Positions 48,835 through 50,749 of a stretch of 64,000 nucleotides of DNA are shown one piece after another. The stretch covers positions 1,536,001 through 1,600,000 of the forward strand of contig CBDFKD010000002.1 of NCBI GenBank assembly GCA_965248695.1, given 5' to 3'. Position 1 is the first letter of the stretch, and each line of letters begins with the position of its first letter. The notes beneath the pieces were generated by a model. That model was given only the letters and a program-made list of their open reading frames with translations, was not told the DNA's origin and did not search any database. Source of the DNA: Acidobacteriota bacterium. GTDB lineage: Bacteria; Acidobacteriota; UBA890; WLXD01. Position numbers and translations under genes: made by a program.

Positions 48835-49512
48835 TTGCCGAGTTCCAGCGATGAAGTTCTGAAACAGGTGGGGGGCGAGGTCCCGCTTCTTTGGTTGTCA
48901 GTCCGGGAAGGGATCGAAGCCTACACCCGCGACCCGGATCATACGGACCGGACACGAGCCAACATCATTCGCGACAAGATCATCGCGAGGCTGAAGGCCA
49001 ATTTCGCCAACGTCGAAGACGTAGCGTTCCAGGAGCGCAACAACCTTTGTGTGATGCAGATCGCCAGGGGCCGCTTCTTCGTCAAAGTGAAGAAGATGAA
49101 CGGCGAGGACCTGCGAACCGCGCAACAGCCAACACAGCTCGTACTTGCCTACAAAGGCCAAGATCACGAGTACTTGCAGCCGCGTTTACTCGGCCTTGGC
49201 GGGGATCGGTTCTGGGCAGATGAAACGGAAGCGCAACACCTTGAACTCGGATATCGGCTTCCGCCAGGGGGCGGCGTAGAATTGCACAGCGCCACTGTCT
49301 GGTTGGTCTGCCCGGACAGTATCTCATCGATCGCATGGGCGATTTGCCTCGATGAGATCGTTGAACCGGCAGTCGAAGAGATCGAACCGCAGCCGACTGT
49401 CGAAGCACCCAAGTCCGAAGTCGTCGCACGAGAAGACCTCGAAACTGGCGAGGCAGAAGAGGAGCAGCAGCACGATGAGCGCAAGCGCCGATCAGAAACT
49501 GATGAATCCTGA
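48835..49512 (+). CDS. IS passenger hypothetical protein
   Basis: 225-aa ORF overlapping the next gene; no family recognised. Confidence 0.7.
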   Translation: MPSSSDEVLKQVGGEVPLLWLSVREGIEAYTRDPDHTDRTRANIIRDKIIARLKANFANVEDVAFQERNNLCVMQIARGRFFVKVKKMNGEDLRTAQQPTQLVLAYKGQDHEYLQPRLLGLGGDRFWADETEAQHLELGYRLPPGGGVELHSATVWLVCPDSISSIAWAICLDEIVEPAVEEIEPQPTVEAPKSEVVAREDLETGEAEEEQQHDERKRRSETDES

Positions 49513-50584
49513 GATGGTCACGGTCTTGCGAGAGTCGCGGGGTTTCACACAGACCGCCCTCGCCAAGAAAGTGAACGTAACTCAGAGCTTGCTATCGAAG
49601 GTCGAAAATGGGCTGGTACCGGCCTCTGCCAAGTTGGTCAGCCGACTTGCCGAAGAACTACGTTATCCCAGCGAACACTTCTTCATGGAAGAGCGCATCT
49701 ACGGTCCGGGTACAAGCGAGTTTTATCATCGCAAGCGGAAGAGCCTTGGAGTTCGTCTTCAGGCCGAAATCTACGCCAGATTGACGTTGTGCCTGAACCA
49801 GATTCGGCGTCTCCTTCGCGGCGCCGCAATAACAGGAGATGCGTTCGAGCATATCGATCCCGACGAAATCGGCGGCAACGCGCGCGAAGTGGCGCGCGCC
49901 GTCCGCTCAATGTGGAACCTCCCCCAAGGTCCCGTGAAGAGCGTGGTCGGCGCGATCGAAGACGCCGGAGGTATCGTGGTGCGCTTCGATTTCCGAACCC
50001 CCAAGGTAGATGGGGTCAGCCGGTGGGTTTCCGGCTTGCCGCCGGCCTTCTTCGTCAACAGGAACCTTCCGGCAGATCGTGAACGATGGACTCTTGCTCA
50101 TGAGGTGGGGCACATCTTCATGCACCGCATTCCGAACGTTCACATGGAACAGGAAGCCGACCTGTTCGCTTCCGAGTTCTTGATGCCGAAAGACGAAATC
50201 AGGCATCAGCTTTGGAACGTAAACCTTCCCAATCTCGCCGCACTCAAGGTCCAGTGGAAGGTATCCATGGCGGCCTTACTGGTGGCCTCGCACAACCTCG
50301 GAGCAAATACGGAGAGTCAATATCGGTACCTGTGGATGAAAATGGGCAAGGCTGGATATAAGACCCGGGAGCCGGAAGAGCTGGACTTTCCGAAGGAGCC
50401 AACCCGTGTTCTCCAAGAACTGATCGAACTACACCGGGATCGTCTGAACTACTCGATCGCTGACCTCTCGGCGCTGTTAGTACTGAACGAAGACGAAGTG
50501 ATCGACCAGTACGGCATCGCGCCCGAGCGGGAACACCAGAAAGGCCGCCTGCGGCTGATCAGCTTACGAGAGGCGTCTGCCTGA
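49475..50584 (+). CDS. XRE-HTH fused to IrrE/ImmA (COG2856) Zn metallopeptidase
   Basis: RESRGFTQTALAKK...LSKVENG HTH; RWTLAHEVGH (HExxH); EQEADLFASEFLMP; WKVSMAAL. Confidence 0.92.
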   Translation: MSASADQKLMNPEMVTVLRESRGFTQTALAKKVNVTQSLLSKVENGLVPASAKLVSRLAEELRYPSEHFFMEERIYGPGTSEFYHRKRKSLGVRLQAEIYARLTLCLNQIRRLLRGAAITGDAFEHIDPDEIGGNAREVARAVRSMWNLPQGPVKSVVGAIEDAGGIVVRFDFRTPKVDGVSRWVSGLPPAFFVNRNLPADRERWTLAHEVGHIFMHRIPNVHMEQEADLFASEFLMPKDEIRHQLWNVNLPNLAALKVQWKVSMAALLVASHNLGANTESQYRYLWMKMGKAGYKTREPEELDFPKEPTRVLQELIELHRDRLNYSIADLSALLVLNEDEVIDQYGIAPEREHQKGRLRLISLREASA

Positions 50585-50594
50585 GAAGAAAGGT

Positions 50595-50679
50595 GCCATC
50601 GTGGCGAAATCGGCAAACGCACCCGGTTTGCGACCGGGCGGCTGTCTAGGCCTTGTGGGTTCGAGTCCCACCGATGGCA
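50595..50679 (+). tRNA. Class II (Leu-type body) tRNA with Ala anticodon UGC
   Basis: Acceptor stem GCCATCG/CGATGGC, D arm GCGAAATCGGCAAACGC, anticodon stem CCCGG/CCGGG with loop TTTGCGA, 16-nt variable region, T arm GTGGG-TTCGAGT-CCCAC, A73. Confidence 0.88.
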
Positions 50680-50749
50680 CCTAAGTACCTCCAGCAGCAT
50701 CGAACCGTAGCCGCCGTGCCGCCACGATGGCGAATGTTACTGTAACAGT

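Follow-up and report, generated by a model that had tools for sequence, protein, structure and literature searches.

Phage-encoded suppressor tRNAs read recoded stop codons in the phage's own late genes, and a programmed frameshift, which works through a slippery sequence and host tRNAs, sets transposase levels in the insertion sequences (IS) IS1 and IS3. In the IrrE/DdrO switch an M78 peptidase and an XRE repressor are separate proteins, and the repressor is cleaved. RosmerTA systems are described as a zinc-peptidase/helix-turn-helix (HTH) antitoxin with a toxin partner (Millman et al. 2022, 10.1101/2022.05.11.491447), and antitoxins with an ImmA domain of the RmrA type are reported to pair with diverse toxins, 58% of them in toxin-first order (Ernits et al. 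2023, PMC10440598). Allo-tRNAs, a class of natural tRNAs whose body and anticodon disagree, are given no function in the sections of their description used here (Mukai et al. 2017, PMC5389517). The present work concerns a transposon of the IS1595 family from an Acidobacteriota genome (GenBank assembly GCA_965248695.1) in which a mismatched tRNA and a RosmerTA-like gene pair are found together. It lies in a 64,000-nt stretch of contig CBDFKD010000002.1 (positions 1,536,001 to 1,600,000 of the forward strand), hereafter the window, and coordinates given without a contig or locus name refer to this stretch. The tRNA joins a body like that of tRNA-Leu to the anticodon UGC, for the Ala codon GCA, and GCA is the invariant codon at two positions of the transposase gene in elements bearing such a tRNA. 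We rate it close to an even question, leaning slightly to the negative, whether these elements make up a widespread, unannotated IS1595 lineage with a sense-codon recoding of its own, in which Ala would be replaced by Leu at the two fixed GCA codons and active or regulatory transposase would be made in proportion to the element's own tRNA (sister elements with UGG or UUA tRNAs may recode likewise). A full-text literature search, with subscription journals outside its coverage, returned no published insertion sequence whose tRNA corresponds to fixed codons in the transposase gene.

The transposon is a single unit of 3355 bp that spans 47617-50971 and contains the transposase gene, a gene pair with an XRE-M78 peptidase, the tRNA gene and a small open reading frame (ORF). 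Its ends are terminal inverted repeats of 22 nt, the left one at 47617-47638 (forward strand, CGGGAGTATGTACCTGTTGAAA) complementary at 22 of 22 positions to the right one at 50950-50971 (reverse strand). Directly outside the repeats stands the same 8-mer, AATAACTT, at 47609-47616 on the left and at 50972-50979 on the right, as a target-site duplication; 8 bp is the length of duplication made by the IS1595 family. (A repeat scan had proposed 34-nt inverted repeats, 47605-47638 and 50950-50983, without target duplication, and this was replaced by the 22-nt repeats and 8-bp duplication after comparison with the copies in genome G192.) The transposase (316 amino acids, 47737-48687, reverse strand) matches the Pfam families DDE_Tnp_IS1595 (2.9e-39) and Zn_ribbon_IS1595 (5.7e-11), as well as the NCBIfam model NF033547 for IS1595 transposases (6e-60, above its cut-off). 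A preliminary description of the locus, made from the letters of the window, had associated the peptidase module with an insertion sequence, and the module does lie inside one.

Relatives of this transposon have moved. G192 has a related element of 2489 bp at two sites, the copies being 99.96% identical and differing in their 8-bp duplications (TTTGTGAT and AAAATTGA); further complete elements, each with a target duplication of its own, are present at loci L151, L120, L092 and L112. The terminal-repeat consensus CGGGAnTAnGTAnnTGTTGAAA is common to related elements of other genomes and of metagenomes. An element of 1136 bp at L130 (1198-2333 of that locus) has the inverted repeats of the family and an 8-bp duplication, ACCTGCTT, around only a UGC tRNA and the small ORF; with the transposase absent, it is a MITE-like derivative (miniature inverted-repeat transposable element). 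The genome of the window holds a second copy as well, at C2:5218550-5219112, an internal-deletion remnant without transposase in which bases 48709-48767 of the window are joined directly to 50480-50982; both the former segment and the tRNA are kept at 100% identity.

The tRNA gene (50595-50681, forward strand) is the sole tRNA that ARAGORN finds in the window, with anticodon UGC, and under the Rfam model RF00005, whose gathering score is 29, it reaches 58.2 bits (E = 3e-11), with a canonical cloverleaf. It is a type-II tRNA, 87 nt in length; its long variable arm measures about 14-16 nt, the discriminator is A73, and the acceptor and T stems have 7 and 5 bp. Rfam, ARAGORN and the alignment fold agree on this stem geometry. 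The determinant recognized by alanyl-tRNA synthetase is G3:U70 in the acceptor stem. Bacterial tRNA-Leu is marked out by a long variable arm, A73 and a Leu-type D-arm and loop, and leucyl-tRNA synthetase (LeuRS) does not read the anticodon. In the element tRNA, pair 3:70 is C:G, so that the G3:U70 of tRNA-Ala is missing. A 20-nt D-arm pattern has exactly 7 matches in the genome (5.9 Mb), namely the five tRNA-Leu genes and the two copies of the element tRNA; the reversed pattern, used as a control, occurs at none. Because it has A73 and a Leu-type D-arm and lacks G3:U70, the element tRNA would be charged by LeuRS. By these features the mismatch of body and anticodon, already pointed out in the preliminary description, is real. 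The 59 ARAGORN tRNA calls of the genome include the two identical 87-nt copies, and a canonical tRNA-Ala(UGC) of 75 nt lies elsewhere, at C2:1855783-1855857, beside a tRNA-Ile.

An alignment of 33 members of this tRNA family has compensatory double changes in 22 of the 24 cloverleaf pairs, and pair 3:70 is CG in 20 members, GC in 9, UA in 3 and AU in 1, but never G:U. (A pattern fixing both D-arm and anticodon was used to find 28 of the 33; five members, from genomes, were found without it.) Such substitutions indicate that the family is under selection as a tRNA. They also bear on the idea that the tRNA is a decaying tRNA-Leu pseudogene, or the remnant of an integration site captured by the IS. 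Several tRNA fragments do mark integrated elements in this genome, and in G001, from another genus of the same family, a truncated 80-nt remnant of the element tRNA lies beside the remnant of a transposase of a different type. With an intact cloverleaf, compensated pairs, a conserved anticodon and a conserved A73, however, and with the tRNA well inside the inverted repeats rather than at the element boundary, we consider decay or capture exceedingly improbable. Two further observations concern the tRNA itself. Some of the metagenome members have the T-loop TCCGA or TCCAA in place of the usual TTCGA or TTCAA (L089, L092, L094, L100-L102, L107, L110, L112, L119, L120, L122, L126 and L130), an unusual change, at position 55. 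A perfect 12-nt complement of the first 12 nt of the tRNA, at 50720-50731 (40 nt 3' of the tRNA), is unconserved in related elements and is probably due to chance.

The peptidase gene (49475-50584, forward strand) ends in TGA at 50582-50584 and, as the preliminary description stated, the tRNA starts after a further 10 nt on the same strand. That description made the tRNA an effector or co-effector of the XRE-M78 module, such that a trigger would derepress the operon and Ala-to-Leu mistranslation would bring about dormancy or abortive infection. The close spacing speaks for such a device, and missense-suppressor allo-tRNAs, when induced, are reported to have arrested and killed Escherichia coli (Mukai et al. 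2017, PMC5389517). The distribution of the parts argues otherwise. Of 80 loci returned for proteins related to the peptidase (27-47% identity), 60 were scanned, and 0 of the 60 have a tRNA in the same orientation close behind the gene; the few tRNA genes and transfer-messenger RNA genes near those 60 loci are ordinary, and lie upstream or on the opposite strand. Metagenomes were scanned for a UGC anticodon loop preceded by a Leu-type D-arm, which gave 46 loci (many on contigs of only 1-3 kb); at 36 of them ARAGORN reports a type-II tRNA, 82-97 nt long, as "Ala-UGC". The RmrA profile, for the peptidase family, matched at 0 of these 46 loci, while a Pfam IS1595 transposase domain was found at 10, and a transposase clustering with that of the window by BLASTP at 12. 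The expectation that homologous loci would have tRNAs downstream fails at the 60 peptidase loci scanned and holds in one case, genome G005, where the order of both protein genes and a UGC tRNA recurs.

A search with the small ORF over 401 genomes of the phylum, unconditioned on any anticodon, gave strong matches at five positions in other genomes (G161, G398, G192 twice, and G005). Each of them is directly preceded, on the same strand, by a type-II UGC tRNA of 88-89 nt, and four also have a transposase, at 61-69% identity to that of the window. What lies between transposase and tRNA varies from one to the next: an ORF like the one upstream of the peptidase gene, here called orfA, with an RmrA gene (G005), a weak DUF5343 match (G192), or an uncharacterized ORF of 235 amino acids (G161). 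The IS1595 transposase and the small ORF are the constant partners of the tRNA, both being retained in elements with other cargo or with none. We assign the tRNA to the core of the transposon and not to the protein pair because the tRNA is absent from the peptidase loci scanned, RmrA is absent from the metagenome tRNA loci, and the trio recurs with differing cargo. As judged from these comparisons, the core of the IS lineage is the transposase, the Leu-type tRNA(UGC) and a small basic protein, and the RosmerTA-like pair is exchangeable cargo. We regard the transposon and this division into core and cargo as close to certain. The role of effector for the pair, in contrast, seems to us very unlikely: elements without the pair retain the tRNA and its anticodon, and the pair has a toxin candidate of its own in orfA. 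Nor does the core extend to the whole family. At seven further IS1595 loci (transposases 43-54% identical), a tRNA within about 5 kb was absent in five, and the tRNA is therefore not a general IS1595 feature.

The third member of the core is a basic protein of 51 amino acids (50750-50905, forward strand), encoded after the tRNA. Its family, with members of about 40-50 amino acids, has a K-rich N-terminus followed by the motif K[PR]GPxEERLxIxxDPxxA[LI]xxLLK. Flank alignment shows that 14 metagenome loci encode the small protein immediately 3' of the tRNA, at a distance of 30-70 nt and in the same orientation. At E<=1e-3 the protein collection searched yields 624 clusters for this family, all of them unnamed, and no Pfam family was found for it.

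The coupling between tRNA and transposase was seen when transposases of nine elements that bear the tRNA were aligned (pairwise identity 54-94%; about 5-6 independent lineages, some metagenome loci being near-duplicates). Two Ala codons are GCA in all nine: site 1, Ala98 of the window's transposase, within FWK-A-CSS (48394-48396, reverse strand), and site 2, Ala203, within ESAL-A-EQV (48079-48081, reverse strand). The motif of site 1 is present at 12 loci, near-duplicates among them, and its Ala codon is GCA in all 12. Five other conserved Ala columns mix GCG, GCC, GCT and GCA, the codons next to both sites vary, and so do the residues flanking site 2. The genes with the invariant codons range from 53 to 63% G+C across hosts. 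When Ala codons were shuffled within genes in six less-related sequences (200,000 shuffles), at least one all-GCA column arose in 0.16% of shuffles and at least two in none, a result that is strong but not exact, as the test ignores shared ancestry. A search of the phylum for IS1595 gave a match in 94 of 401 genomes, and among 30 IS1595 loci of the phylum GCA stands at both sites only in the four with a UGC tRNA. A requirement for Ala alone would leave the third base free; one for decoding by a UGC tRNA with a load other than Ala would fix it. Site 1 is occupied by a bulky hydrophobic residue in 18 of 18 more distant transposases (M 8, V 4, I 3, L 1, F 1, W 1), and Leu would match these. That the element tRNA decodes both GCA codons with a residue other than Ala is, on this evidence, about as probable as its contrary; that the residue is Leu in particular is a possibility we put forward tentatively.

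We propose that the element tRNA, once charged by LeuRS, would compete with the host tRNA-Ala(UGC) at GCA codons, and that the GCA codons for Ala98 and Ala203 would be retained in the transposase gene for its use. The transposase would then be made in two forms, one with Ala from the host tRNA and one with Leu from the element tRNA, at a ratio set by the level of the element tRNA. This ratio would tune transposition, in a way that resembles the programmed frameshift of IS1 and IS3. In the copy described here the tRNA, so close behind rmrA, may share a transcript controlled by RmrA, and such a transcript, to speculate further, would couple recoding to the relief of RmrA repression.

Several observations weigh against this proposal. 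The Leu identity of the tRNA is based on sequence features alone. The host tRNA-Ala(UGC) would compete with it, and a Leu-charged UGC tRNA would mistranslate GCA codons of the host; in the gene for isoleucyl-tRNA synthetase (IleRS) next to the element, for example, 13 of 90 Ala codons are GCA. The nearest transposases outside the UGC group, at L161 (in the unpublished genome G156) and L160, have GCG/TTC and GCG/CGC at sites 1 and 2, respectively, so Ala encoded by GCG may be tolerated at site 1, and across the family site 2 takes various residues (R, E, K and others). The small number of lineages and their shared ancestry, noted above, temper the codon counts. In the small ORF no GCA is conserved, and the codon of its invariant Ala varies. 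The coupling, finally, was not replicated in other clades: the transposase of an element with a UUA tRNA has no in-frame stops, and relatives of an element with a UGG tRNA (in G264) were not found in 29 genomes of its order.

Two other accounts of the tRNA must be set against the same evidence. It could act through general, low-level Ala-to-Leu mistranslation, or be selfish cargo, with no link to the transposase and with GCA kept for some other reason such as local decoding speed. Natural mistranslating tRNAs without known targets are described, as in the tRNAProX of Streptomyces (PMC11415595) and the allo-tRNAs (PMC5389517), and the second copy in this genome, although it has lost its transposase, retains an identical tRNA. 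Such an account, however, leaves unexplained why the cognate GCA is invariant at two sites, and only in tRNA-bearing elements, and we think it rather unlikely. Alternatively, the tRNA might not decode at all, serving instead as a processing signal or stabilizer for the transcript of the small ORF, as a cis element for the transposase or the small protein, or as a decoy for toxins that target tRNA. The fixed position of the small ORF downstream would be natural under this account, as would the hairpin that precedes the tRNA in many elements; a VapBC pair adjoins the IS. Yet the UGC anticodon is kept in all five members found without anticodon bias, the full cloverleaf covaries, and the invariance of the matching codon in the transposase points to the ribosome. 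A decoy of tRNA-Ala, moreover, would be expected to look like tRNA-Ala, which the element tRNA does not. We therefore hold a non-decoding role to be unlikely, and recoding of the transposase by the element's own tRNA remains our preferred explanation.

Type-II tRNAs whose anticodon does not fit are also found in three further IS1595 elements of the phylum. The tRNA at L187 (G170:C14, 4504-4590) has the ochre-reading anticodon UUA. The one at L188 (G264:C29, 3002-3089) has UGG, for a Pro codon, with G73 and a Ser-like D-arm, and lies within perfect 26-nt inverted repeats (1703-1728 and 3600-3625). The third, at L161 (1400-1490, in the unpublished genome G156), combines UGG with a Leu-like body and abuts the start of the transposase gene. 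In the single UGG-bearing transposases, some of the CCA codons stand at columns that are hydrophobic or rich in Ser, an anecdotal observation. Suppressor tRNAs were also looked for beside IS1595 genes with in-frame stops; a tRNA was present at 0 of 7 such loci, and the genes are probably pseudogenes.

Leu-type UGC tRNAs occur in other settings too. A separate subfamily, at the metagenome loci L095, L096 and L115, lies beside a gene for an NYN-domain protein and miaA (tRNA isopentenyltransferase), with no IS1595 domain among the ORFs scanned. At L116 two such tRNAs are found upstream of a SelB-like elongation factor; at L100 one adjoins a phage terminase, and at L106 one is placed between cas3 and another cas gene.

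The cargo of the present element consists of two overlapping genes. The first, orfA (48835-49512, forward strand), has a TTG start and encodes 225 amino acids of an unnamed family of about 200 residues, a candidate toxin of the RosmerTA type. The second is the peptidase gene, which encodes 369 amino acids as a fusion of an XRE HTH domain with an M78 (ImmA/IrrE) zinc peptidase domain, an RmrA-like antitoxin or regulator. The two overlap by 38 nt, in agreement with the preliminary description, and the peptidase start at 49475 is backed by a homologue of 369 amino acids with 96% identity over 100% of its length. Pfam detects HTH_3 (2.3e-11) and Peptidase_M78 (8.5e-14), and the HExxH residues H209, E210 and H213 are invariant across 36 homologues; 819 homologues were found at E<=1e-10 among 8000 candidates scored. 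The protein matches 14 PADLOC models of RmrA, the RosmerTA antitoxin (best E 1.5e-55, residues 10-342), and PHROG 2439, a phage "transcriptional regulator" (1.4e-78); its match to the NCBIfam spr1629 repressor/antitoxin family is below the family cut-off. In G005, of the same genus, the order orfA-like, RmrA, tRNA recurs with diverged proteins, an RmrA 46% identical and an upstream ORF 24% identical over 170 residues (E 6e-8). The PADLOC matches and the recurrence of the pair bear out the earlier suggestion that the two proteins form a module of the toxin or defence type. We consider it probable that orfA and XRE-M78 are a RosmerTA-type toxin-antitoxin or defence pair with orfA as the putative toxin, and RmrA may act as autorepressor of the operon.

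Its control region would be the divergent, A+T-rich stretch between the transposase and cargo genes (48688-48834), in which a tandem 18-nt repeat at 48777-48812 is a candidate operator. A consensus scan for promoters and terminators over 47500-51800, this region included, gave nothing above shuffled sequence except an outward TTGACA at the right end of the IS, part of a promoter-like site that reaches over 50979-51007.

Two results for orfA tell against its assignment as a toxin of known type. It has no match in Pfam, PADLOC (RmrT models included), NCBIfam or the PHROGs, and no clear PD-(D/E)xK catalytic motif is evident among its conserved residues (R39, D47, K86, K87, T100, Y140 and W168). 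A word-indexed search found four near relatives only. A profile search extends the family to 238 representatives at E<=1e-3, mostly of about 200 amino acids; PADLOC matched 0 of the 56 members scanned, one of the 56 has a marginal Pfam match (HEPN_RiboL-PSP, E 0.0091), and the ESM Atlas has only unnamed clusters for orfA, one of them with DUF5986 on 14% of its members. An AlphaFold model based on a 56-sequence alignment reached a pLDDT (predicted local distance difference test) of 82.4, in place of a run with 5 sequences that was unusable at 41.6. Foldseek found nothing for this model at E<=0.001, its best match being BglI at E 0.024. The exhaustive aligner VIA-align ranked NaeI first (Z 6.8, root-mean-square deviation 3.4 over 125 residues), followed by EcoRV (Z 5.9) and then by SwaI, RecU (PDB 1y1o), BglI and Hjc. 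The predicted fold is thus weakly restriction-endonuclease-like. The preliminary description had raised a nuclease fold as a question, and these matches lend it weak backing.

A predicted complex of orfA with RmrA scored 0.40, against 0.01 for the best of 3 controls, and lends weak support to the pairing. The mark applied to such scores was passed by 116 of 157 solved complexes and by 2 of 215 mismatched pairs (these counts apply approximately, as the prediction used our own alignments). Among those passing, scores of 0.60 or less were found in just 18 of the 157 solved complexes, yet in both of the mismatches. The runs agree in at least 52% of contacts, with a pLDDT of at least 70 for the partner.

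The surroundings of the element include other small systems. Immediately left of the insertion site, at 46902-47539, are genes for a VapB antitoxin (2e-19) and for a VapC with a PIN domain (5.9e-05), placed just downstream of IleRS (43562-46720). To the right (51007-51695) are genes for a membrane protein of 154 amino acids and then an XRE HTH regulator of 74. A repeat of about 150 nt at 51710-51860 has more than 60 copies at 85-99% identity over both contigs, often with a 34-nt inverted partner nearby, and looks like a MITE or an element of the REP (repetitive extragenic palindromic) type.

Elsewhere in the genome, the island of the second copy (L001, G000:C2:5211000-5226000) has a degenerate 72-nt "Arg-CCT" call at 6565-6636 and, at 9444-9519, a type-I tRNA of 76 nt with the Ser anticodon GGA, an identical copy of which is found at G000:C1:1975-2050 on the 128-kb contig C1. 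These calls are further mismatches of body and anticodon. Two more short "Ser" calls are at C2:1401818 and C2:2238653. Other ARAGORN calls share only their 3' part with a genuine tRNA (Leu-CAA, Met, SeC), at C2:92021-92109, 3177552-3177645, 4678307-4678404 and 5559422-5559519, and look like duplicated attachment sites of integrated elements.

Mismatched natural tRNAs have been catalogued in soil bacteria, and here one of them has a defined genetic context, in the core of an active transposon lineage. If the proposed recoding is true, missense decoding through a private tRNA would be a new means by which a mobile element controls its transposase, and a natural case of one sense codon with two readings inside a single cell; it would also give a function to some, at least, of the "mistranslating" tRNAs that soil bacteria carry without explanation. 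For annotation, the element tRNA is now labelled "tRNA-Ala", and the protein of about 40 amino acids, for all its 624 clusters, "hypothetical protein". With orfA, the RosmerTA-like cargo brings in a new family of candidate toxins, of 238 representatives.

Among known systems, the nearest functional analogue is the phage suppressor tRNA: in both cases a mobile element carries a tRNA for special codons of its own genes. Here, in contrast, the codon is the sense codon GCA, the carrier is an IS, and the recoding seems to concern just two positions in a single gene. The frameshift of IS1 and IS3 likewise uses translational recoding to set active transposase against a second product, whereas an element-encoded tRNA and missense recoding are proposed here.

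The tRNAProX/ProRSx systems of Streptomyces and Kitasatospora also combine the identity of one amino acid with the anticodon of another, Ala among them, but they are described with a dedicated synthetase isoform and, in the parts of that report drawn on here, are not placed on transposons; the present element has no synthetase gene (PMC11415595). Allo-tRNAs, too, are alike in that body and anticodon disagree, and they come from soil and peat metagenomes, where they frequently have toxin-antitoxin genes for neighbours and, in a single instance, overlap a transposon-related ORF (Mukai et al. 2017, PMC5389517). Their geometry, however, is 8/4 or 9/3 and their identity mostly Ser, whereas the element tRNA is 7/5 with a Leu-type body; the first two of the 36 "UGC" matches in the supplement, for example, are 79-nt "8/4, E-loop" tRNAs with T73, a structure that differs from that of the element tRNA, and the sections of the paper used here report no coupling to codons of neighbouring genes (PMC5389517). 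The element tRNA is, by these marks, not an allo-tRNA.

The cargo pair resembles ImmR/ImmA of ICEBs1 in that a mobile element carries a switch built from an M78 peptidase and an XRE repressor, but ImmR and ImmA are described as two separate proteins, of which the peptidase cleaves the repressor, and here the two are fused as in RmrA (PMC10440598). RosmerTA as described is closer (10.1101/2022.05.11.491447; PMC10440598): both have an XRE HTH + ImmA/M78 antitoxin, an adjacent and overlapping gene for a small, unrelated toxin (here a candidate toxin, placed first), and carriage on mobile elements. The pair of the present transposon differs in that its toxicity and defence are predictions, that orfA matches no PADLOC RmrT model, and that a tRNA is not described as part of RosmerTA in the sections of those sources used here. 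On the balance of these likenesses, the protein pair appears to be a new member of the RosmerTA kind, carried by a transposon whose mismatched tRNA belongs to its own core.

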